This document shows positions 855-11,372 of a DNA stretch of 11,372 nucleotides, piece after piece. The stretch is from Armatimonadota bacterium (GTDB lineage: Bacteria > Armatimonadota > Fimbriimonadia > Fimbriimonadales > ATM1). The position numbers and the translations under genes were made by a program. The stretch covers positions 1 to 11,372 of the forward strand of contig JACDEQ010000048.1 in NCBI GenBank assembly GCA_013816225.1, in the 5' to 3' direction. The notes beneath the pieces are model-generated. The model saw nothing but the letters and a program-made list of their open reading frames with translations, made no database searches and was not told the origin of the DNA. The stretch's first letter is position 1. The number at the start of each line of letters is the position of its first letter.

Positions 855-1829
855 ATGATTCTCACTTACCGTGACGCCCTTCGCAAGGCGATGACAGATG
901 AGATAGAGAGGGACGAGAACGTCTTCCTCATCGGCGAGGACATTGGCCGCTACCAGGGCACTTTTCGAGTGACTCAAGGCCTCTTCGAGCAGTTCAAGCA
1001 GAAGCGCGTCCTCGACACGCCGATTTCCGAGCCCGGAGTGGTCGGCATCGCCACCGGTGCGGCGATGGTAGGTCTGCGGCCGATTGTCGAGATGATGACG
1101 ATGAGCTTCTCGATCCTTGCTCTCGACCAGATCATCAACCACGCGGCAAAGATTCACTACATGACCGGTGGCCAGTTCACGGTTCCGATGGTGGTTCGTG
1201 GTCCAGGCGGCGCAGCGAATCAGCTGAGCGCCCAGCATAGCCACAGCATGGAGGGATGGTACGCCCACGTCCCTGGCCTGAAGGTTGTTGCTCCCAGCAC
1301 GCCTCGCGATGCCTACGGGATGCTGAAGACCGCGGTGCGCGACGACAACCCAGTGGTCTTCACCGAGAACCCAGGCTTGTACGCCGTCAAGGGCGAGATC
1401 CCCGAGGATGAGGATTTCACAATCCCGTTCGGGAAGTGCGCTATACGCGCGGAGGGGAAGGATATCACGCTGATCGGATACTCGCGTATGGCCCTCGTTT
1501 GCATGGAGGTCGCTGAAGAGCTCGATAAAGAGGGCATCAGCGCGGAGGTGATCGATGTTCGTTCGCTGCTACCGCTCGACAGCGAGACCATCTTCAACTC
1601 CGTGAATAAGACGCACCGTGCGGTCGTTCTGTACGAGGACTGGAAGTCCGGCGGATTCGGCGCCGAGTTGGTCGCTCGAATTCAAGATTCATGCTTCGAC
1701 CATCTCGACGCCCCGATCGGACGCGTCGGCGGTCTGAATGTGCCGATGCCTTACGCACGCAACCTCGAGCTTCTGTGCATCCCGAGCAAAGACGATCTGT
1801 TGGCTCAGGTTCGCAAGACATTGGCGTAA
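855..1829 (+). CDS. pdhB: 2-oxo-acid (pyruvate-type) dehydrogenase E1 component, beta subunit
   Basis: 324 aa with E1-beta/transketolase-like motifs (GEDIGRYQGTFRVTQGL, DTPISEPGVVGIATGAAMVGLRPIVEMMTMSF, DQIINHAAKIHYMTGG). The start codon directly abuts the pdhA stop (translational coupling). PDH versus acetoin-DH E1 cannot be resolved from sequence alone. Confidence 0.85.
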   Translation: MILTYRDALRKAMTDEIERDENVFLIGEDIGRYQGTFRVTQGLFEQFKQKRVLDTPISEPGVVGIATGAAMVGLRPIVEMMTMSFSILALDQIINHAAKIHYMTGGQFTVPMVVRGPGGAANQLSAQHSHSMEGWYAHVPGLKVVAPSTPRDAYGMLKTAVRDDNPVVFTENPGLYAVKGEIPEDEDFTIPFGKCAIRAEGKDITLIGYSRMALVCMEVAEELDKEGISAEVIDVRSLLPLDSETIFNSVNKTHRAVVLYEDWKSGGFGAELVARIQDSCFDHLDAPIGRVGGLNVPMPYARNLELLCIPSKDDLLAQVRKTLA

Positions 1830-1875
1830 CCGCAAGGGGTTACAATCGCGGGCATCCGTCCTTCACAATAGGAGG

Positions 1876-3150
1876 ATGAATGATGCCGCGATCGCCGGAC
1901 TGTTCGATCTGATAAATGAGAAGGGAATCGGTGAGGCCGTAAAGCGCGTGTCCGATGAAGAAGCGATTCGACTCACCGAGGAGTACGGCACCCACAATTA
2001 CCACCCTCTTCACGTCAACATCGTTCGCGGCGACGGGATTTACGCATACGACGGGAGCGGCACCGAATACATCGACTGCATCGGGAGCTATTCGGCCGTC
2101 GCACACGGCCACCTCAACGAGGCCGTCTCCAATGTCGTGAGAAAGCAGCTCGACAAAATCACACTAACCAGTAGAGCGGTCTATACATCCGAAATGGCGC
2201 TGCTCTTGCAAGGGCTTTGCGAGTACACCGAAATGGACATGGCGTGCCCGATGAACACCGGCGCGGAGGCCGTCGAAACCGCGATCAAGCTCGCGAGGAA
2301 GTGGGCTTACACGATCAAGGGCGTTCCCACAAACCGGGCCGAAATCATCGTCGCGAATGAGAATTTCCACGGGCGAACCACGACGATCGTCGGCTTTAGC
2401 AGCGAGGCGCAGTACAAGGAAGGCTTCGGGCCTTTCACTCCGGGATTCAAGATGGTCGACTTCGGTGATACCGCCGCCCTGGAAGCGGCCATAACGCCGA
2501 ACACCGCCGCCGTCATAATGGAACCGATTCAGGCGGAAGGCGGGATTATCTTTCCGCCCGGTGGATATATGGCCGCCGCGCGCGGACTATGCACGATGAA
2601 CAACCTGATGCTCATTTGGGACGAAATCCAGACCGGATTCTGCCGAACAGGCAAGAGATTCGCGTGGCAATACGAGGATGCTAAGCCTGACATGATGTGC
2701 CTCGGAAAGGCGCTTGGCGGCGGACTGTATCCCGTCTCCGCCGTTGTCGGTGCGCGCAAGGTGATGAGCGTATTCGTCCCCGGCGATCACGGAAGCACAT
2801 TTGGCGGGAATCCACTCGCGTCTGTAATCGCTCTGGCGGCGATGGCAGAGATGGAGTCGAAGGACTACGCCGGCCGCAGCGCGGCGATGGGGGCCAGGCT
2901 GCTCGAAGGCCTTGGGGCCCTCCCACATAGCTCCATCGAAGACGTTAGGGGAAGGGGCCTGTTGGTAGGCATCGAAGTTCGGGAAGGCGTGGACACGAAG
3001 GCCCTCACCCAAGGGTTCCTGAACGAACGAATCCTGACAAAGGAGACGAGGAGCCGGACCTTCCGATACGCTCCACCCCTGATTATTTCTGAGTCGCAGA
3101 TCGACGAAATTGTAGCGAGAACTTCGCGCGCTCTCGACGCGGTTAGCTAA
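1876..3150 (+). CDS. rocD: ornithine aminotransferase (class-III PLP-dependent aminotransferase)
   Basis: OAT-specific N-terminal motif EYGTHNYHPLHV (consensus YGAHNYHPLPV), GSYSAVAHGH, and the PLP-lysine region CLGKALGGGLYPVSAVVG (OAT: LLGKALSGGLYPVSAV). ATG at 1876 is the first in-frame ATG after the pdhB stop. The listed ORF start at 1738 overlaps pdhB in another frame and is rejected. Confidence 0.8.
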   Translation: MNDAAIAGLFDLINEKGIGEAVKRVSDEEAIRLTEEYGTHNYHPLHVNIVRGDGIYAYDGSGTEYIDCIGSYSAVAHGHLNEAVSNVVRKQLDKITLTSRAVYTSEMALLLQGLCEYTEMDMACPMNTGAEAVETAIKLARKWAYTIKGVPTNRAEIIVANENFHGRTTTIVGFSSEAQYKEGFGPFTPGFKMVDFGDTAALEAAITPNTAAVIMEPIQAEGGIIFPPGGYMAAARGLCTMNNLMLIWDEIQTGFCRTGKRFAWQYEDAKPDMMCLGKALGGGLYPVSAVVGARKVMSVFVPGDHGSTFGGNPLASVIALAAMAEMESKDYAGRSAAMGARLLEGLGALPHSSIEDVRGRGLLVGIEVREGVDTKALTQGFLNERILTKETRSRTFRYAPPLIISESQIDEIVARTSRALDAVS

Positions 3151-3195: not shown

Positions 3196-3756
3196 ATGCT
3201 GACTTTCTACATCATTTCTGCGATTGTGGGTGGAATCTTGATCCTCGCTTCGGCGTTTGCGAGCGACGACCATCATTTCCACTTCGGTGGCGGGGATTCT
3301 CACGATGCTGACGGTATCCATGCGGATGTTTACATACCGTTCTTTAGCCTCAGATTCTGGACCTATTTTTTCACCTTCTTCGGTGTCACAGGCTTGTCGC
3401 TGACGAATTTTACGACCCTCGCCGCAGGCCTCGTCCCCTGGCTTGCGGGCGCTACAGGTTTGGTATCCGGCCTGCTCGTGTTTTTCAGCATGATGGCCTT
3501 GCGGAGGAACGAGGTAGACAGCAGCGTTTCTCAGGAGGACATCGTCGGTTCGGAAGCCAAGGTGCTCCTATCGATATCAGAGGGGAAACCCGGAAAGATT
3601 CGGTGCGCGATAAAGGGTGAGCTTTTGGACTTAGTCGCGTTCACGTCCGAAAAATCGCCAATAGAAGTCGGGGCGCGGGCGTTGGTCGTGAGCATCCAGA
3701 ATGGCAACGCGGAAGTAGTATCGTTGACGGCGATGCTCGAAGAAGGGAGGAGTTAA
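3196..3756 (+). CDS. NfeD/YuaF-like membrane protein (short NfeD with C-terminal OB-fold), partner of SPFH/flotillin proteins
   Basis: 186 aa. Hydrophobic N-terminal helices (MLTFYIISAIVGGILILASAFA; FWTYFFTFFGVTGLSL; LVPWLAGATGLVSGLLVFF) followed by a C-terminal soluble beta-rich segment (GSEAKVLLSISEGKPGKIRCAIKGELLDLVAFTSEKSPIEVGARALVVSIQNGNAEVV) typical of the NfeD OB-fold. It lies immediately upstream of the flotillin genes with a 4-nt gap, as in B. subtilis yuaF-floT. Confidence 0.7.
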   Translation: MLTFYIISAIVGGILILASAFASDDHHFHFGGGDSHDADGIHADVYIPFFSLRFWTYFFTFFGVTGLSLTNFTTLAAGLVPWLAGATGLVSGLLVFFSMMALRRNEVDSSVSQEDIVGSEAKVLLSISEGKPGKIRCAIKGELLDLVAFTSEKSPIEVGARALVVSIQNGNAEVVSLTAMLEEGRS

Positions 3757-3760
3757 AAGC

Positions 3761-4414
3761 ATGTTCGATTTCTTGCGGGAATGGACCACGATTCACTGGT
3801 CGATTGCGGGCGGCCTCGCCTTCGGGCTCGGCTTGTTGGTCCTGCTGGCGTTCATCAAGAATTTCCTCTATATCTGCACTCCCAACCAGGTTTTGATCTT
3901 TTCGGGTGGCCAGAAGCACCGGTTGCCCGACGGCTCGTACCGCGGATTTAGGGTGGTATTCGGCGGGCGGGGCTGGCGTAAACCATTCTTCGAACGCGTC
4001 AGCCGGATGAGCCTCAACCTTATGGAGGTGCCCATTCACATTCGCGGCGCCTATTCGAAAGGTGGTATTCCGCTCATCGTCGAAGCGATCGCCAACATCA
4101 AGATTTCGAGCGATCCGGTTCTTATCGGCAACGCGATCGAGCGCTTCTTGGGGCGCGATCCGGAGGAGATTCGGCGCGTGGCGAAGGAGACCTTGGAAGG
4201 ACATCTTCGGGGAGTTCTCGCTAAACTCACGCCGGAAGAGGTCAACGAGGACCGCCTCAAATTCGCAGCCGAGCTGAGCCAAGAATCGCAAGACGACCTT
4301 AGTAAGTTGGGGATCCAGGTAGACACACTCAAGATTCAGCACGTCTCCGACGATGTCAAGTATTTGGACTCGATCGGACGTGAAGCGATTGCCAATGTTG
4401 TCCGCGATGCCTAA
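3761..4414 (+). CDS. flotillin paralog 1, N-terminal fragment (TM anchor + SPFH/band-7 domain), terminated by in-frame TAA
   Basis: Membrane anchor plus ICTPNQVLIFSGG and an SPFH core ending in the conserved LKIQHVSDDVKYLDSIGR. Alignable residue-for-residue with the N-terminal half of the downstream intact flotillin (5055..6371). RBS GGGAGGAG at 3747-3754. Confidence 0.75.
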   Translation: MFDFLREWTTIHWSIAGGLAFGLGLLVLLAFIKNFLYICTPNQVLIFSGGQKHRLPDGSYRGFRVVFGGRGWRKPFFERVSRMSLNLMEVPIHIRGAYSKGGIPLIVEAIANIKISSDPVLIGNAIERFLGRDPEEIRRVAKETLEGHLRGVLAKLTPEEVNEDRLKFAAELSQESQDDLSKLGIQVDTLKIQHVSDDVKYLDSIGREAIANVVRDA

Positions 4415-4432
4415 ATTGCGGAGAGTGACGCG

Positions 4433-5053
4433 ATGCGCGCCGCCGCGCAGGCTGAAGCGGAAGCCGAGGGGCGGGCGAAGGTCATCGAAGCGAACGTCGA
4501 CGCGGCCGTCTTTAGGCTTCACAACGATCTGCGAAGAATCCAAGCGGAGTTGGAGTCACAAGTCAAGTCGGAGGAGGAGCGCACGACGGCGGCCGCCCGA
4601 GAGGCACGAGCCGTGGCCGAGCAAGAGTGGCAGCAGGTCAGGGCAGCCGTGGAGGAGATACGCCTAAAGGCTGACAAGGTGCTGCCTGCGGATGCGGCGC
4701 GGACCGCGCAGGAATTCAAGGCGCAGGGCGATGCCGCATCCATCCGAGAAAGGGGGCAGGCTGTTGGACAAGCCCTCGATATGCTTAACGCGGCTTGGTC
4801 GAGCGCCGGTGACAATGCCCTCTCGATATACCTAATCGAAGACATCGAGAATATCTTGAGCGCCGCGGCCAAGGGTGTTTCGAAGGTGAAGATCGGCAAC
4901 CTGAATATCATCGACAGCGGCGACGGGGAAACCCTGTCGTCCTACGTGTCGGCGTATCCGGCCATGCTTTCGTCGATCTTCGACGCCGTGGCGAAGACCA
5001 CCGGTATAGACATTCCGGGATCGATTTCCGGCGTGAAGAAGGAAGGCAAATAA
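4433..5053 (+). CDS. flotillin paralog 1, C-terminal fragment (Ala/Glu-rich coiled-coil + flotillin C-terminal domain)
   Basis: Same reading frame as 3761..4414 (4433-3761 is divisible by 3). AQAEAEAEGRAKVIE EA-repeat region and C-terminal ...ALSIYLIEDIENILSAAAKGVSKVKIGNLNIIDSGDG, which aligns with ...DVFLLQKLDKVIETITSVVAETEIEKLTMIDSSGTG of paralog 2. Own ATG preceded by GGAGAG (4421-4426). Confidence 0.65.
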   Translation: MRAAAQAEAEAEGRAKVIEANVDAAVFRLHNDLRRIQAELESQVKSEEERTTAAAREARAVAEQEWQQVRAAVEEIRLKADKVLPADAARTAQEFKAQGDAASIRERGQAVGQALDMLNAAWSSAGDNALSIYLIEDIENILSAAAKGVSKVKIGNLNIIDSGDGETLSSYVSAYPAMLSSIFDAVAKTTGIDIPGSISGVKKEGK

Positions 5054-5054
5054 T

Positions 5055-6371
5055 ATGGATTGGGCTGCCATTATCATCGGCATTCTCATCGTCGCGGCGG
5101 TAGCCGTCTTCATCACGATTACCAGGCTCATTCAGATTTGCGAGCCGAACGAAGTGCTCATTTTTTCGGGGACTCGTCGCCGCTTGGCGGACCGATCCAT
5201 CGGCTACCGGATCATCAAAGGCGGTATGGGCGTTCGCAAACCTCTCATCGAGCGCGTCGACAAGATGGACCTTACCAACATGATCATCGACGTCTCGGCG
5301 TCGAACGCTTACTCCAAAGGCGGGGTCCCCCTCACGGTTCAAGGTGTCGCAAACGTGAAGATCGCCGGGCACGAACCCGTCCTGAACAACGCGATCGAGC
5401 GATTCCTTGGTAAGACGAGGGCCGAGGTGATGTCGATCGCGAAGGCGACGCTCGAGGGCAGCCTTCGTGGCGTTCTTGCGACACTTACGCCAGAGCAGGT
5501 GAACGAAGACAAACTGCTGTTTGCCGAGAAGCTCGTCCAGGAAGTGGAGCACGACATGACGAGCCTCGGTCTGGTCGTCGATACGCTCAAGATTCAAAAC
5601 GTCCAAGACGACGTCAAGTACCTGGATTCCATCGGCCGCAAACAGACCGCCGAAGTGGTTCGCGTGGCGCGGATCGCTGAAGCGAAAGCGATGTCCGAGG
5701 CGGCCATTAGGTCAGCCGAGAACCGAGAAAGGGAAGTCACCGCCCAAATCACCGCCCAGGTATCGATCGCCAAGGCGGACGCCCAAAAGCGGTTGACCGA
5801 CGCGCTAACGAGACGCGACGCTGTCGTCGCCGAGGAGCAAGCGACAGTTGCTGCCGCGCTGGCATCGGCCAAAGCCGAGGTAGGCGTCCAGACCGCACGC
5901 GTCGAACAGGTGAAAGGACAACTGGACGCCGACGTTGTGCAGCCGGCCAAAGCCGCTCGCCTTGCTGCGGAAGCGGCAGCGAAAGCATCAGCTGCGCCCA
6001 TCATACAAGACGGTAAGGCGCGAGCGGAGGTCCTCCAAACCCTTGCCGACAGTTGGGTAAAGGCGGGTAAGAACGCTCGCGATGTTTTCCTGCTTCAGAA
6101 GCTGGACAAAGTGATCGAGACCATTACCTCCGTGGTTGCCGAGACGGAAATCGAGAAGCTGACGATGATCGATTCCAGTGGAACAGGCGCAACGCAACCT
6201 ATGAAAGCGGTGGCAACCCTCGAACAGATAAAAGAGATTTTCGGCATCGATGTGGTCGGCAAATTGAAATCGCTCGGCGAGCACAACGCCCTGCCGGCAA
6301 ACAGGAACGATGAGGCCCCTTTCGAGGAAACGCGCGAAATTCTCACACCGAAATCTACCCCTGACAGTTAA
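5055..6371 (+). CDS. floT: flotillin (SPFH/band-7 family, FloT/YuaG-like), intact paralog 2
   Basis: 438 aa. N-terminal TM helix, ICEPNEVLIFSG, SPFH core, conserved DDVKYLDSIGRKQTAEVVRVARIAEAKA, long Ala/Glu-rich coiled-coil and flotillin C-terminal region. RBS GGAAGG at 5041-5046. Start is 1 nt after the upstream stop. Confidence 0.85.
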   Translation: MDWAAIIIGILIVAAVAVFITITRLIQICEPNEVLIFSGTRRRLADRSIGYRIIKGGMGVRKPLIERVDKMDLTNMIIDVSASNAYSKGGVPLTVQGVANVKIAGHEPVLNNAIERFLGKTRAEVMSIAKATLEGSLRGVLATLTPEQVNEDKLLFAEKLVQEVEHDMTSLGLVVDTLKIQNVQDDVKYLDSIGRKQTAEVVRVARIAEAKAMSEAAIRSAENREREVTAQITAQVSIAKADAQKRLTDALTRRDAVVAEEQATVAAALASAKAEVGVQTARVEQVKGQLDADVVQPAKAARLAAEAAAKASAAPIIQDGKARAEVLQTLADSWVKAGKNARDVFLLQKLDKVIETITSVVAETEIEKLTMIDSSGTGATQPMKAVATLEQIKEIFGIDVVGKLKSLGEHNALPANRNDEAPFEETREILTPKSTPDS

Positions 6372-6482: not shown

Positions 6483-8729
6483 ATGACAAAGAGAACCCTA
6501 GTGGCCCTTGCCGGTTTCGTCGGGCTATCCTTATTGGCGTCCGTGGCACACGCGGACCAGATCTGGCAGGTCAAAAACGGTACCACGTCGATGACCCTTT
6601 ACCGCCAGATCATTCGCGACATAGGACTCAAACTCGAGATCCGAGAAACCGCTTTACCTCGAACAGATATGGAAGAGGCTGTCGGCTTCAAGGTCACGGG
6701 CGCCAGCGATTTGAAGTTCTTCACCAAGAACGGCATGTACCGCTACTGGACCGAAGGTCGCGTCACAAGCGAGGGCGGATTCACTCTTAAGAGTGCAAAA
6801 GGTTCTCTCAGGGTCGACGACTTCGCGATCATATACCGAAATACCGGCCTGTCGGACAACATGTTCGTTCTGAACGGCGCCACGGACAGCAGCCCGGTTG
6901 CATTCGATCTTTCCCATATCAAGGTCAACTTCGACCGGAAGACCAAGACGCTACGTTTCGGCTACGCCGACATGATCCTCACCAATAAGGCCGCCAATAG
7001 GCTCGGCAGGCCGGACCTTGCCGGCCAAATCATTGGCATGGCAACGGTTTCCGCCCGGGCTGCTTTCGTTAGCGGTGACGTGAAGGATCCCGATCTCGAG
7101 CCCAGTGGTGGCGCCGACGGGGATATGAATGGCAATGTGAAGTTGCACCTTCTCGGCGACTGCACGAGCTACGGCCGGGTCGGTACGTTCCCCAATGGAA
7201 TCAGTGGCCTGGGCATTTCCACGACTTCCTGCAACGTAACCGATATCCCCGGCGACGTCGTCGACTGGTATGCGCAGATGGACGAGCGGCACCCGGTGAT
7301 AGCTCAAAACTTCTACCGTATCCATTCGATCAATGGCGGAACCCGCTTCGAGCAGATCGGCGTCGGCTGGGTTAAGCACGGCTTCCTTTCGACCAACTCG
7401 AATGGCTGTATCGGTCCGAATGGCGAAAACTGCGTAACTCCGCCTAACGGCGGTAACGAACTAGGCGTTTTCTGTTCGGATACTTACGGATCTGGACTCA
7501 ACGCAAGCCGAGATTGGCTCGGCCCGCGCGACGAAATCAACGCGTTCGCAGGCACCTGGGAGTGCACGGGCAGCTACTTCTCGAACTATCAGAACGACTG
7601 TGTCGAGCGCTTCAACACTAACGGTCTGGGCCCGGTGGACCACCGGCTGCAGGTACATGACCAAGACCTGACGGCGCCGAACTCGCAGTTCTTCTATGAA
7701 GCCTACTACGTGTCCAGGGACGACGTAGATCGCTATAATAGCGCAGCGTTTCGCCCATGCACGGTCAACTTCCAGGGCGGCGATTGGCACTTCCAGCCGA
7801 CCCAAGCGCAGACGAATGGCGTAGTTGCCGACCACTGGGGCGATATTCAGCCGGCTCCCAGGGCGCAACCGGCCGACGAAGGTGATATCCTCGTCGCCGT
7901 TCAGGTGAACGATCTTGGCGGCGGCAAGTGGCACTACGACTATGCGGTGTATAACCATACATCGTATCGTGAGATGCGCCAGTTCACGATTCCCTTGCCG
8001 GATGGCTTGACACTCGAGAACGTCGAGTTCCGAGACATCGACAAAGACGACACCAACGAGTGGACGTGGAACTACGGAAACTCCGCGTTGACGTGGAAGA
8101 CGAGCACGTACGCTCAGAGCCCAGATGCGAACTCGCTCAAGTGGAATAGCGTCTTCAACTTCCGATTCGACGCGAATTCGCCTCCGGCCGTCAACGGATC
8201 CACGGCTACCCTCGGCCTGTTCAGACCGGGCGTCCTTCAGATGCTCGCGGCGGAGACCCGAGGGCCGAGAAGCCCGTTCACGAATCCCACGGTCCTAAAT
8301 GTGGAGCGCGGTGACCAAGTGGCGGGTGGGCTGGCCGACCTCTTCAACAGCGACGATTCGAAGTTGGGCTTGCATCCCGGAATAGTCTTCGGCACGTTTC
8401 AAGCGCCGATTCGAGTCGTTCTAGAGGGCACGAGCGCCCAAGGCCCGACAACCCTCAAGTTCCGCGTAGAGTCGGCTGCCAGTTCGCCCAGTGTGAGTCA
8501 GAAGATTGAGCTCTTCAACTTCACGTTAGGCAGCTATGTGCCGTTGAGCACGACCAACTTGACGACGTCGGATGGTGTTGTCGAAGTCGCGGCCCCGAAT
8601 CCTGCGCAGTTCGTGCAAGCGGTTACCGGCAAGGTTCGAGCCCGGCTCGAGTTTAAGCTGACCGGTCCGGTGTTCGTGTTCCCGTGGAGCGTGGACATCG
8701 ACCAAGCGGTCTGGAGAATCCTCCCGTAG
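6483..8729 (+). CDS. secreted Cys-containing protein of unknown family (748 aa) with a ~140-aa C-terminal module shared with the next gene
   Basis: Strong SD. N-terminal signal peptide MTKRTLVALAGFVGLSLLASVAHA/DQ. Long uninterrupted ORF with several spaced Cys (CTSYG...CNVT; NGCIGPNGENCVTPP...FCSDTYG; WECTGSYFSNYQNDCVERF), consistent with extracellular disulfides. No motif I can assign to a known family. Confidence 0.7.
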   Translation: MTKRTLVALAGFVGLSLLASVAHADQIWQVKNGTTSMTLYRQIIRDIGLKLEIRETALPRTDMEEAVGFKVTGASDLKFFTKNGMYRYWTEGRVTSEGGFTLKSAKGSLRVDDFAIIYRNTGLSDNMFVLNGATDSSPVAFDLSHIKVNFDRKTKTLRFGYADMILTNKAANRLGRPDLAGQIIGMATVSARAAFVSGDVKDPDLEPSGGADGDMNGNVKLHLLGDCTSYGRVGTFPNGISGLGISTTSCNVTDIPGDVVDWYAQMDERHPVIAQNFYRIHSINGGTRFEQIGVGWVKHGFLSTNSNGCIGPNGENCVTPPNGGNELGVFCSDTYGSGLNASRDWLGPRDEINAFAGTWECTGSYFSNYQNDCVERFNTNGLGPVDHRLQVHDQDLTAPNSQFFYEAYYVSRDDVDRYNSAAFRPCTVNFQGGDWHFQPTQAQTNGVVADHWGDIQPAPRAQPADEGDILVAVQVNDLGGGKWHYDYAVYNHTSYREMRQFTIPLPDGLTLENVEFRDIDKDDTNEWTWNYGNSALTWKTSTYAQSPDANSLKWNSVFNFRFDANSPPAVNGSTATLGLFRPGVLQMLAAETRGPRSPFTNPTVLNVERGDQVAGGLADLFNSDDSKLGLHPGIVFGTFQAPIRVVLEGTSAQGPTTLKFRVESAASSPSVSQKIELFNFTLGSYVPLSTTNLTTSDGVVEVAAPNPAQFVQAVTGKVRARLEFKLTGPVFVFPWSVDIDQAVWRILP

Positions 8730-8907: not shown

Positions 8908-10590
8908 GTGAATACTTCGAAGCTTTTGCCCGCCGCCTTAGGCGCGGCGAGCCTGTTTACCGGCGCTTCGGCGCAAACCTTGGTCGACCCCGACTACTTC
9001 GTTGAAACTTACGCATCGGGCTTATCCGGAGCTGTGGGCATGGAGTTTCTTTCAGCGTCGACTGTCCTTGTCACGCAGAAGGATACTGGACAAGTGAGGG
9101 TCGTCGTGAACGGTGTGGTGGACGGAACACCCGCGCTTGATTTACCTGTCAATAACGCCAGCGAGCGCGGTCTCCTCGGCATTTGCAAGCACCCCGATTT
9201 CGCCAAAAATGGTTTCGTTTACCTTTACTGGAGCCGATCCACGACCGGCGGGGATACCGGGGTCAGTGCAAACTGGAGCGACAACCGGGTCGAGCGGTAC
9301 GTTTACAACAGCGGAACGCTCTCACTCGACTCCCTGATCGCCATTTTCTCGAAAGATCCGGCACAAAATAACGGCCCGAATCATGATGGCGGAGTAATCA
9401 TGATCGGGCCCGATCAGAAGCTCTACATCATCACCGGTGACCTAAATAGGAACCGAGCCGAGCAGAACAATCAAGGCACACCGAACCTTTCCGCGAAGGT
9501 AGGCGGCGTACACCGGCTGAACCTCGACGGCACAATCCCAGGCGACAATCCGTTCGTGGGCTTAGGCAACACCGATTTCCACCCGTATTATGTGTATGGC
9601 GTGCGCAATTCGTACGGCATGAGCTGGGACCCTCTAACGAGCAAAATCTGGTTCACGGAGAATGGCCCCGGATCTTATGACGAAGTCAATCACGTCCCGA
9701 CCCCAGGTATGAACTCGGGCTGGAATGAACTCATGGGCCCGGATTCGAGAGATCCGCAAGGCGTGGGTGACCTCGTCATGTTCACTGGGGCCTACTATCG
9801 TGACCCAGAATTCAGCTGGCTTACACCCATTGCAGTCACCTCCATTGCTTGGTTGACTAGCAGCAAGTTCCACGGGACCGAGCGCACACATTGCGTCATA
9901 GGCGACGCAAACAACGGCTTCCTTTACCTGTTCCAAATGAACCTTGCCAGAGACGGATTCGTGCTCAGCGGCGGCGTAGCCGACAAGGTTGCCGATAGCA
10001 GCGCCGAGCGCGACCTGAATAAATGGGGCAGCGGCTTTGGCATCACCACCGACCTCGAAATCGGCCAAGATGGCTACCTGTACGGAACTAGCCTAACACT
10101 CGGTCGGATCTTTAGGATTCGGCCGGTTGTCGAAAGCGTCGTTCCAACGTCGTTCTCGCTCTTTCGTGGTGTCCTCATTTCGGGCAATCTGCAAAGCCTC
10201 AGTGCGAGCGACGACAACCGGCTGGTAACCCGGCCAGGGCCGGTCTTTACCAACGCTGAAGCCCCGATCCAGCTGATCCTAACGAGCACCTCGCCTTTTG
10301 TGGCGCCATCGGCTCTCTCATTCAAGATCGAGTCGAATTGCTCGGTGAGCAACATCACGCAGTCGGTAGCCCTTTATAACTTCAACACCATGTCGTACGA
10401 GACGCTGAACACGGGGACGGCAATGACATCTGACAGCACCATCACGATCAACGTTTCATCCGATGCCGCCAGGTTCATCGGACCCGATAACGAACTCCGC
10501 GCGAGAATCAGTTACAAAGCGCAAGGAACAACCTTCATCTATCCCTGGCATTCCCGGATCGACCACGTCCAGTGGACTCTGACCCGCTAG
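8908..10590 (+). CDS. secreted soluble glucose/sorbosone dehydrogenase-like (PQQ-dependent-type) beta-propeller protein with shared C-terminal module
   Basis: Preferred start is GTG 8908, preceded by GAGGA (8893-8897, ~10-nt spacer), giving signal peptide (M)NTSKLLPAALGAASLFTGASA/QT. Family motifs: DYFVETYASGL, PALDLPVNNASERGLLGICKHPDFAKNGFVYLYWS, later blades (NGPNHDGGVIMIGPDQKLYIITGD, WDPLTSKIWFTENGPGSYDEVN). The in-frame ATG at 8833 is an alternative start but has no SD and an atypical N-region. Confidence 0.7.
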   Translation: MNTSKLLPAALGAASLFTGASAQTLVDPDYFVETYASGLSGAVGMEFLSASTVLVTQKDTGQVRVVVNGVVDGTPALDLPVNNASERGLLGICKHPDFAKNGFVYLYWSRSTTGGDTGVSANWSDNRVERYVYNSGTLSLDSLIAIFSKDPAQNNGPNHDGGVIMIGPDQKLYIITGDLNRNRAEQNNQGTPNLSAKVGGVHRLNLDGTIPGDNPFVGLGNTDFHPYYVYGVRNSYGMSWDPLTSKIWFTENGPGSYDEVNHVPTPGMNSGWNELMGPDSRDPQGVGDLVMFTGAYYRDPEFSWLTPIAVTSIAWLTSSKFHGTERTHCVIGDANNGFLYLFQMNLARDGFVLSGGVADKVADSSAERDLNKWGSGFGITTDLEIGQDGYLYGTSLTLGRIFRIRPVVESVVPTSFSLFRGVLISGNLQSLSASDDNRLVTRPGPVFTNAEAPIQLILTSTSPFVAPSALSFKIESNCSVSNITQSVALYNFNTMSYETLNTGTAMTSDSTITINVSSDAARFIGPDNELRARISYKAQGTTFIYPWHSRIDHVQWTLTR

Positions 10591-10631: not shown

Positions 10632-11372
10632 CTAGTTAATGCGAACGGGCAGCGGGCCCGATGCGAGGGTCCACCCGAACGTGTCAATCGATATCCGACG
10701 TGGCTTGCCGGGCGTAGGGAACCAAAATTCCTGCTCTTTGCCGATCATCTCGACCGGAAACTTCTTCTCCCCTGCGTCGGTTTCGATGATCACAACTAAC
10801 CTCAGCCTGAACGGAGCCGCTGTGCCGGTCTGAGCAAGAGTGATCGTCGTCTCGTGGCCTTCGCGGGGAGCTTTCTCGGCAAAGGTGCGGACAAACGATA
10901 CTTCGGGGAAAATGCTCCCCCTTACCCACTGGGCGAAGAACCAGTCTAACTTGCGCTTAGAGGAGTTGGTAAAGCTCCGATCGATGTCGCTCCACTCGGT
11001 CATCCTTCCCTTACGCGACACCGCTAACTCGCGTAAGCACCGGTTCATCGTCTCCAGACCAAGCTCGTTCTCGAGCATTTTCATGACGTACGCCCCGCGG
11101 TAATAGCCGACGTTGCCATGAGGTCCATGCGCGAGGAGCGGGTCTTCCAGGGCAACCTTGGTGTTGCGGGTCGAGTAGCCCAGGTTCAAGCTCTGGTCTG
11201 AGTTGCTCTTGAACTGTGCGCTGTCGATATACTGCGTCAGGCTCTCATTCCAAATGCTGTGGATATAGCTGTTGGGAACCCAGCCTCCGAAGTACGTGTG
11301 CCCGACCTCGTGCGAGGTGGCCCAGCTGGTGATGCCCGGTGTCAGCAGTGTAAAGCTGTAGCATTCGATTCC
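10632..11372 (-). CDS. M1-family zinc aminopeptidase (gluzincin), C-terminal part; N-terminus lies beyond window end
   Basis: Reverse-strand translation from the window edge reads ...WATSHEVGHTYFGGWVPNSYIHSIWNESLTQY..., i.e. HEXXH followed 18 residues later by E (HEXXH-X18-E gluzincin zinc site, His codons at ~11312-11298, Glu at ~11246-11244). The frame is open to position 11372. The listed ORF start at 11189 is an internal Met. Stop TAG on minus at 10632-10634. Confidence 0.8.
   Translation of the reverse strand, partial: GIECYSFTLLTPGITSWATSHEVGHTYFGGWVPNSYIHSIWNESLTQYIDSAQFKSNSDQSLNLGYSTRNTKVALEDPLLAHGPHGNVGYYRGAYVMKMLENELGLETMNRCLRELAVSRKGRMTEWSDIDRSFTNSSKRKLDWFFAQWVRGSIFPEVSFVRTFAEKAPREGHETTITLAQTGTAAPFRLRLVVIIETDAGEKKFPVEMIGKEQEFWFPTPGKPRRISIDTFGWTLASGPLPVRIN

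Follow-up and report, generated by a model that had tools for sequence, protein, structure and literature searches.

The floA gene of a conserved nfeD-floA-floB module is interrupted by a single in-frame stop codon in an uncultured Fimbriimonadales (Armatimonadota) population, and the best explanation of the interruption is a nonsense allele of recent origin, which probably makes floA a weakened gene or a pseudogene in the making, and not a flotillin newly built of two parts (probability about 0.6). The codon for Glu218, GAA, would have been converted to TAA by one G to T change in the evolutionarily recent past, at the hinge that joins the membrane-proximal SPFH domain to the long wall helix. 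The features referred to below lie in the window, by which we mean the whole 11,372-nucleotide stretch of contig JACDEQ010000048.1 that was analysed.

3196 to 3756, plus strand: nfeD-like membrane protein gene, the first gene of the module, with a weak match to Pfam NfeD (E 0.0068, below the cut-off)
3761 to 4414, plus strand: N-terminal floA open reading frame of 217 amino acids, comprising membrane anchor and SPFH1/2 domain and terminated by the premature TAA
3910 to 5260, no strand: tract of about 1.35 kb that includes the stop and is mosaic (recombination) relative to the sister genome
4401 to 4422, plus strand: predicted 8-bp RNA hairpin, 4401-4408 pairing with 4415-4422; its loop holds the stop and its 3' arm the Shine-Dalgarno (SD) sequence
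4412 to 4414, plus strand: premature TAA, replacing the near-invariant Glu218 (GAA in the sister genome)
4415 to 4432, plus strand: 18-nt spacer, untranslated if termination is followed by restart, encoding a conserved IAESDA in orthologues and holding the GGAG
4433 to 5053, plus strand: C-terminal floA open reading frame of 206 amino acids, with the wall helix (CC1), the cap helix (CC2) and the C-terminal domain; its ATG is the ancestral Met225
4628 to 4630, plus strand: TGG codon of L290W, a radical change specific to the window lineage
5055 to 6371, plus strand: floB, the intact flotillin paralogue of 438 amino acids

The nfeD-like gene, floA and floB (starts at 3196, 3761 and 5055) are tightly spaced on the same strand. 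The start of floA is preceded by a strong SD sequence, GGGAGGAG (-11.6 kcal/mol), and the ATG of floB lies 1 nt past the natural floA stop (TAAtATG). Among 80 related loci from several phyla, floB follows floA in every one and an NfeD homologue immediately precedes the two flotillin genes in at least 69; the product of the nfeD-like gene is named NfeD family protein in GenBank (MBA3725617.1). The SPFH (Band 7) domain, PF01145, is found by Pfam in the N-terminal half of floA (E 1.2e-19) and in floB (E 5.1e-21). FloT (NF058507) is the best NCBIfam match for both floA halves and for floB, with scores of 126.3 bits for the N-terminal half, 23.5 for the C-terminal half and 146.9 for floB against a curated cut-off of 700 bits; judged by scores so far under the equivalog cut-off, the window flotillins are not FloT orthologues. 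They do have the make-up of SPFH/flotillin proteins, with an SPFH domain followed by a coiled-coil wall helix and a C-terminal region homologous to flotillin-1/2.

Positions 3761-5053 make up an otherwise perfect flotillin frame of 430 codons with one in-frame TAA, and the region 4397-4435 reads GTT GTC CGC GAT GCC TAA ATT GCG GAG AGT GAC GCG ATG. The two open reading frames, 3761..4414 and 4433..5053, share this frame, and the 430-residue protein obtained by reading through the stop is collinear with floB (42% identity, E 4e-83), bearing out the first-pass annotation, which had described two same-frame halves collinear with the intact flotillin. It had also placed the TAA where the paralogue has arginine. 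The stop does align opposite an Arg of floB, in VVRVARIAEAKAM, but the ancestral residue is glutamate, which occupies this column in 27 of 27 aligned orthologues. At the 80 genome loci the codon is GAG in 51, GAA in 16, GAC in nine and something else in four, and since the sister genome has GAA, the change amounts to one G>T transversion, GAA>TAA.

The sister genome is a metagenome-assembled genome, GCA_051003155.1 (L090), that is syntenic over the whole window, with 87-95% amino acid identity per gene (93% for floA) and an identical nfeD-floA-floB order. Its floA is intact at 430 amino acids and aligns to the window frame gaplessly over residues 1-430 with exactly one stop in the window copy, which puts the interruption far beyond chance. 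A Logan contig (L091) has the same gene order, likewise encodes an intact 430-residue floA and has GAA at this codon. An uninterrupted floA orthologue, with a sense codon at this position as the first-pass annotation had proposed to check, is present in all 80 genome loci, and the 120 best database matches are all 406-457 amino acids long. Orthologues sharing the split had been suggested as the mark of a genuine two-piece flotillin; none was found in the 80 loci, the 120 proteins or the sister. The locus survey came from a scan of GTDB genomes in which the best locus was 72% identical and from whose result the window's genome and the sister genome were absent. The sister was found through the 90%-identity cluster of the N-terminal half, and because of the same clustering it is missing among the 120 best matches. 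Thus floA, like a pseudogene, has a disabling mutation that is lacking in its orthologues, and with TAA at 4412-4414 it does not encode an uninterrupted polypeptide from the SPFH domain to the oligomerisation region.

Six short relatives of the C-terminal half were examined. One is the window's own product. Two (P0134, P0136) are fragments cut by contig ends, and three are disrupted at other positions: both paralogues are frameshifted on the 4x long-read contig of P0133, the SPFH domain of P0124 (L088) contains a 1-nt frameshift, and P0143 (L092/L093) has internal deletions. None of these five candidates for a stand-alone C-terminal half breaks at the window's position. Three sequences of 41-53 amino acids in the cluster of the N-terminal half (P0147-P0149) were rejected as independent sightings of the stop, being unrelated. 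The frameshift of L088 and the deletions of L092/L093 indicate that floA is sporadically lost or broken elsewhere while floB is kept.

The stop is present in a second assembly. NCBI contig JAITZQ013045071.1 also carries TAA, and it differs from the window at 13 of 9125 positions, 11 of the differences being synonymous and two non-synonymous. As the differences are mostly synonymous, the two assemblies represent natural haplotypes rather than noise. A sequencing error, which the first-pass annotation had allowed for, is therefore now unlikely. An artefact of sequencing, assembly or consensus, or a minority variant taken into the consensus of an organism that truly has GAA and an intact floA, could be argued from the nature of the change, a single-base G>T in a metagenome with millions of contigs, and from the rest of floA showing no degeneration. 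G>T changes are the class tied to oxidative damage during library preparation. The two assemblies may moreover come from the same or related read sets and need not be independent. We nevertheless consider this explanation distinctly improbable: their 13 differences have the pattern of real strain variation, the other eight genes of the 11.4-kb window are free of stops, frameshifts and gaps when compared with the sister genome, which indicates that the assembly is not error-prone, and a chance consensus error creating a stop in exactly this codon would be very improbable. Same-species contigs were also sought in JGI metagenomes, both with a degenerate pattern spanning the stop (first position free, third position A or G) and with an exact 26-mer at the floA start, with 0 matches. 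No literature was found on JAITZQ, GCA_020064125, H0W86, MBA3725618, GCA_051003155 or JBPCLO.

The stop also falls within a stretch of unusual divergence from the sister genome. In the mosaic tract nucleotide identity is 72-83%, compared with 88-96% in the flanks, and differences at four-fold degenerate sites reach 61-68%, compared with 18-29%. The very high synonymous divergence of floA raised the question of artificial recoding. This was rejected, as the tract starts within floA and ends within floB instead of following the gene borders, as would an import by recombination.

Relative to the sister the C-terminal half of floA has no indels and no further stops. The signs of secondary decay expected of a pseudogene (stops, frameshifts, raised dN/dS) are absent, and L290W, at a column where 119 of 120 orthologues have Leu, is the sole unusual change. 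The C-terminal half has one private substitution in 61 conserved columns, where the orthologue mean is 0.93, and the N-terminal half none in 87. When the differences in the C-terminal half are polarised against the sister, four are derived in the window, seven in the sister and 12 are ambiguous. The dN/dS of the N-terminal half against the sister is 0.017; for the C-terminal half dN is 0.064, with synonymous sites saturated. The two TAA haplotypes have no differences in the C-terminal half where about 0.9 would be expected, a comparison without power. In the absence of decay the stop must be either recent or tolerated; from these sequence comparisons either it arose recently or the C-terminal half is still under constraint, and the undecayed half is compatible with a very young pseudogene.

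In the protein, the stop lies about 10 residues past the part that aligns to the solved SPFH domain of flotillin-2, 1WIN (E 3.4e-20). It is just past the last SPFH strand in the AlphaFold model of an orthologue (P0006; mean pLDDT 71.5), in which a 140-residue helix follows at 233-372. The read-through floA can be aligned with flotillin-1 across residues 37-341 and with flotillin-2 across 39-301. Flotillin cages consist of a CC1 wall, CC2 and a roof of the C-terminal domain (CTD), and their dome is reported to be probably disrupted by C-terminal truncation (PMC11260169, PMC13000311). With the stop at the hinge, translation from the strong floA start would end after Ala217, giving a membrane-anchored SPFH stub without the helices and C-terminal domain used for the oligomeric cage, which it would presumably be unable to form. 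Such a weakened allele or incipient pseudogene would most likely be tolerated because the intact paralogue floB remains.

It had been noted at the outset that the downstream half keeps its own ribosome-binding site and ATG. Both are there: ATG 4433 is the first in-frame start past the stop, 18 nt downstream of the TAA, and GGAG at 4420-4423 lies 9 nt ahead of it, with an SD duplex of -7.0 kcal/mol. The description is nevertheless misleading, for both belong to the normal coding sequence. The intact protein of the sister already has Met225, and the bases of GGAG come from GCG-GAG, the codons for the conserved residues Ala220 and Glu221 of the A-E-S motif. The segment EIAESDA belongs to the best-conserved motif of the family, Glu221 and Ser222 being invariant. 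The equivalent of the GGAG in the sister is GGAA, with a duplex of -3.5 kcal/mol, and six of the seven real starts in the window have SD energies of -5.1 to -12.3 kcal/mol. Of the 61 internal in-frame ATGs in the window, none but ATG 4433 has an SD that reaches -7 kcal/mol, and 0.3-1.5% of codon positions have such a restart site within 10 codons under strict criteria, or 9% under lenient ones. The restart context is thus objectively good and unusual, and reinitiation is, on this sequence evidence, mechanistically plausible. The predicted hairpin has a minimum free energy z of -2.24 (5 of 200 shuffles fold equally well) and its stem is not kept in the wider family, so that it may be due to chance. 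A fraction of the ribosomes ending at 4414 would probably reinitiate at AUG 4433, releasing some free 206-residue C-terminal fragment and carrying ribosomes on to the junction at which floA and floB are coupled. Nothing in these sequences indicates that selection has favoured the arrangement.

It could instead be that the gene is functional in two pieces, the nonsense mutation at the hinge being rescued by termination and reinitiation, and the SPFH piece and the wall and cap piece co-assembling non-covalently with FloB. Several observations that sit awkwardly with simple loss would be accounted for. The C-terminal half is undecayed, without an excess of derived changes, as is also expected if it is still expressed and useful; the stop falls exactly at the SPFH2/CC1 hinge, 18 nt upstream of a rare, strong restart site whose SD is better than that of the sister; and in the predicted hairpin this SD is part of a stem, which would be melted by a ribosome terminating at the stop, as happens in translational coupling. 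The TAA allele is also common to two haplotypes. Furthermore, purifying selection on floA is otherwise very strong (dN/dS about 0.02), so loss of the gene should be costly, which counts against a degenerating gene. We still regard a working two-piece flotillin as unlikely. The split is confined to this lineage, neither the ATG nor the GGAG evolved for it, and a restart at 4433 would leave the seven residues of EIAESDA untranslated. The window-specific L290W also speaks against it, the haplotype comparison has no power for the C-terminal half, and the hairpin is of modest significance. Hardly credible is a third possibility, that TAA is decoded, by reassignment or efficient programmed readthrough, so that full-length protein is still made. 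The frame is perfectly kept on both sides of the stop, as this would require, but orthologues simply encode Glu at this codon, and bacteria are not known to have a recoding signal for TAA. Reassignment was rejected in view of the use of TAA as the normal terminator at five of the eight natural gene ends in the window, including those of nfeD, floA and floB, at positions as in the sister. A recent pseudogenisation, raised as one possibility in the first-pass annotation, fits best, given the intact sister and other orthologues and the undecayed downstream half.

As it stands, this is a commonplace nonsense allele of young age in a genome derived from a metagenome, and it is mainly relevant to annotation: the GenBank entries 'flotillin family protein' and 'hypothetical protein' H0W86_03990 (MBA3725619.1) are two parts of one interrupted floA gene. 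Of more general note is the wide conservation of nfeD-floA-floB, with a paralogue pair resembling eukaryotic flotillin-1/2. Were both pieces to be made and to assemble, this would be a natural experiment showing that SPFH cages can withstand an interruption between membrane ring and helical wall; the covalent link between the two would be dispensable, which would be of interest for the assembly of flotillin, HflK/C and prohibitin.

The closest structural parallel is the eukaryotic flotillin-1/flotillin-2 cage (PDB 9BQ2, 9L3G), with clear sequence homology that spans the SPFH domain and extends into the first part of the wall helix (E 7e-33 and 4e-30) and the same domain order of membrane anchor, SPFH1/2, long CC1 helix, CC2 and CTD. 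The two side-by-side paralogues, about 42% identical, recall its alternating 22+22 arrangement (PMC11260169). Unlike the eukaryotic proteins, which have a lipid-modified hairpin, the bacterial floA has an N-terminal transmembrane helix, and the window floA, known here from its sequence, is in an operon with an NfeD-like gene and interrupted at the SPFH2/CC1 hinge. The nfeD-floT and nfeD-floA operons of Bacillus similarly have an NfeD-like gene directly upstream of SPFH/flotillin genes, but the module here differs in having two flotillin paralogues behind one nfeD. The lacI and phage T4 rIIB genes are the classical cases of reinitiation after nonsense codons, and these and translational coupling are matched by a stop with an in-frame AUG no more than 18 nt downstream, behind an SD-like GGAG, and by a predicted hairpin with the SD in one arm that a terminating ribosome would open; in the window, however, these signals, as read from the DNA, are by-products of the coding sequence. 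Finally, floA resembles ordinary young bacterial pseudogenes in having one disabling substitution while its closest relative and other orthologues are intact, and in being independently disrupted in other lineages, but it differs from them in that it has no visible secondary decay and in that both the site of the stop and its restart context favour residual function to an unusual degree.

The flotillin gene floA (3761-5053) is interrupted by a TAA at 4412-4414, where the window reads GTT GTC CGC GAT GCC TAA ATT GCG GAG AGT GAC GCG ATG (4397-4435), leaving two open reading frames:

3761..4414, forward strand, floA N-half ORF, 217 aa, with an SPFH/Band 7 domain (Pfam E 1.2e-19)
4433..5053, forward strand, floA C-half ORF, 206 aa, in the same frame as the N-half

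The first-pass annotation described these same-frame ORFs as collinear with the intact flotillin gene floB (5055..6371), with the TAA opposite an Arg of the paralogue. This is accurate; read through the TAA, floA gives 430 residues collinear with the 438-aa floB product (42% identity, E 4e-83), and the Arg of VVRVARIAEAKAM in floB stands opposite the stop. In GenBank the N-half is MBA3725618.1, 'flotillin family protein', and the C-half MBA3725619.1, 'hypothetical protein H0W86_03990'. Like the N-half, the floB product contains an SPFH/Band 7 domain (Pfam). Read-through floA is homologous to human flotillin-2 and flotillin-1 (E 7e-33 and 4e-30), and cage structures of the human flotillins have been solved (9BQ2, 9L3G). 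The best NCBIfam model is FloT, with scores far under the equivalog cut-off.

The position of the stop is Glu in all 27 of the closest full-length orthologues, inside the motif RDAEIAESDA, and across 80 genome loci of relatives the codon there is GAG in 51, GAA in 16, GAC in nine and another in four. No stop was found anywhere within the floA orthologue at these 80 loci, and the best 120 database matches are all 406-457 aa long. Clustering at 90% identity groups the N-half with an intact 430-aa protein, MGI8923010.1, from the Fimbriimonadales MAG GCA_051003155.1 (the sister genome), which was also found in a Logan assembly. The sister has the same gene order over the entire window, with gap-free alignments of all nine genes (87-95% amino-acid identity) in which the TAA is the sole disruption. 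As the sister codon is GAA, the change in floA was one G>T transversion, GAA>TAA. We consider it probable (about 0.6) that the window carries a genuine, recent nonsense allele of floA, an incipient pseudogene or weakened gene, whose product would be an SPFH stub, truncated but still membrane-anchored; some reinitiation at 4433 would be likely, but unselected.

An artefact or minor variant behind the TAA seems improbable. The NCBI contig JAITZQ013045071.1 encodes the same two half-proteins and shows 13 differences from the window over 9125 positions, grouped into three clusters (4063-4228, 9207-9266 and 11345-11364). Eleven of the 13 differences, including all five within the N-half, are synonymous; since random errors would be mostly non-synonymous, the two sequences are natural haplotypes, both carrying the TAA. 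The window bridges two NCBI contigs, with a 26 nt overlap, and therefore comes from a separate assembly, although the two assemblies may have samples in common. The tight clustering of the differences resembles patches of strain-level micro-recombination, or else different routes taken by the assemblies through a mixed population. Readthrough or recoding of the TAA is very hard to credit, as five of the window's eight natural gene ends have TAA as their terminator; reassignment of TAA was ruled out on the same ground.

That the gene is a functional two-piece flotillin, partly functional and rescued by reinitiation, is doubtful, although a strong and rare restart context at ATG 4433 and a predicted hairpin keep the hypothesis alive. 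The Shine-Dalgarno (SD) duplex before this ATG has an energy of -7.0 kcal/mol. Of seven real starts in the window that were tested, six give -5.1 to -12.3 kcal/mol and the seventh, that of the aminotransferase, whose position is taken from the sister annotation, only -1.8 kcal/mol. Among 61 internal in-frame ATGs it is the only one with an SD that strong, and such a site lies within 10 codons downstream of 0.3% of codon positions (ATG alone) or 1.5% (with GTG/TTG), rising to 9% under a lenient threshold of -5 kcal/mol. The sister equivalent, GGAA, reaches only -3.5 kcal/mol. The predicted 8-bp hairpin (z-score only -2.2) has the stop within its loop and the SD along its 3' arm, and a terminating ribosome would open that arm. 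However, a restart at 4433 would skip EIAESDA, part of the family's most conserved motif, with the invariant Glu221 and Ser222. The downstream half had been said to keep its own RBS and ATG. Both are present, but ATG 4433 is the codon of Met225 of the ancestral protein, a variable position (Met in five of 80 orthologues) that is also Met in the intact sister, and GGAG is part of the GCG-GAG codons for conserved Ala220 and Glu221, with GCGGAG also seen in several intact orthologues; they were therefore neither kept nor evolved for the split. Of the three options first offered, recent pseudogenisation is the most likely, a two-piece flotillin possible and a sequencing error, with the TAA in two haplotypes, unlikely.

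The C-half is undecayed, with neither indels nor a second stop against the sister. It has one private substitution in 61 columns at least 95% conserved (intact-orthologue mean 0.93), and the N-half none in 87 such columns. Polarised with 120 outgroups, the 23 C-half differences between window and sister comprise four derived in the window, seven derived in the sister and 12 ambiguous, with no acceleration on the window branch. With a C-half dN of 0.064 and saturated synonymous sites, either the stop is very young or the C-half remains under constraint; by our estimate, neutral drift over more than about 1% of the sister divergence would be expected to leave many more replacements. The TAA-bearing haplotypes show no C-half differences, about 0.9 being expected, so that this comparison lacks power. 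The only unusual C-half replacement is L290W (TGG, 4628-4630), a Trp for the Leu that the sister and 119 of 120 orthologues have at this place in the coiled-coil wall helix; it may mark the beginning of a loss of constraint.

In flotillin-2 numbering the stop falls near residue 180, some 10 residues past query residues 81-208, the segment that aligns with 1WIN, a solved SPFH domain. In the AlphaFold model of an orthologue (P0006, 78% identity, mean pLDDT 71.5) a transmembrane helix (9-34) and an SPFH fold through strand 183-195 are followed by a short low-confidence helix (206-217) holding the equivalent Glu216, and then a 140-residue helix (233-372). Alignment and model thus place the break at the SPFH2/CC1 hinge. 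The cage wall of flotillins consists of CC1 and the roof of CC2 with the CTD, and progressive C-terminal truncation is reported to be likely to disrupt the dome (PMC13000311).

The TAA falls inside a tract of about 1.35 kb (about 3910-5260; 10150-11500 in the sister locus) with 72-83% nucleotide identity to the sister, compared with 88-96% for the flanking sequence. Of the four-fold degenerate sites, 61-68% differ within it and 18-29% outside, and its proteins are nevertheless about 90% identical. With its borders inside floA and floB, the tract looks like an import that one of the two lineages received from a more distant relative by homologous recombination, and purifying selection on it looks strong, with dN/dS about 0.02. 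The TAA may have come in with the import or arisen later. Elsewhere in the window, the 748-aa protein encoded at 6483-8729 is without Pfam or NCBIfam match. Its C-terminal ~145 residues share homology (34% identity) with the C-terminal end of its neighbour, a glucose/sorbosone dehydrogenase-like protein (8908-10590). Downstream of the flotillins, the 748-aa protein was found only in the sister and one other locus (L005). The longest ORF of the class-III aminotransferase (1738-3150) starts at 1738, with a 92-nt overlap with the preceding gene; the sister annotation and an AGGAGG immediately upstream point to ATG 1876 (424 aa) as the real start.

A search with the C-half gave 24 proteins, mostly shorter, and no lineage among the six traced to context shares the break. 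P0134 and P0136 are cut by contig ends, P0133 lies on a 4x long-read contig (L087) with frameshifts in both paralogues, and P0121 is the window's own product. In P0124 (L088, 2478-3786) the SPFH domain is broken by a 1-nt frameshift, present on two contigs, with floB intact downstream. P0143 (L092/L093) has internal deletions on a marine contig; in L092 (2474-3411), a TARA scaffold, floB follows, and a second assembly has the same sequence. Thus floA is independently disrupted now and then in uncultured relatives while floB remains, which fits a tolerable loss of floA.

An NfeD-like membrane protein is encoded 5' of floA, and the natural floA stop is 1 nt from the floB start (TAAtATG). In all 80 related loci, from Armatimonadota, Myxococcota, Cyanobacteria, Acidobacteriota and others, the floA orthologue is directly followed by the second paralogue, and in at least 69 it is preceded by an NfeD-like gene; nfeD-floA-floB is therefore a conserved module. 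The module (3196-6371; L005-L084) spans several phyla, including Proteobacteria-labelled MAGs, and its paralogues share about 40% identity and frequently lie almost end to end. The TAA-bearing floA is an ordinary interrupted gene of a known family, in a conserved operon. Flotillin-1 and flotillin-2 alternate 22+22 within the cage (PMC11260169), and by analogy the floA and floB products probably form a hetero-oligomer, the tandem paralleling in bacteria the flotillin-1/2 pair of eukaryotes.
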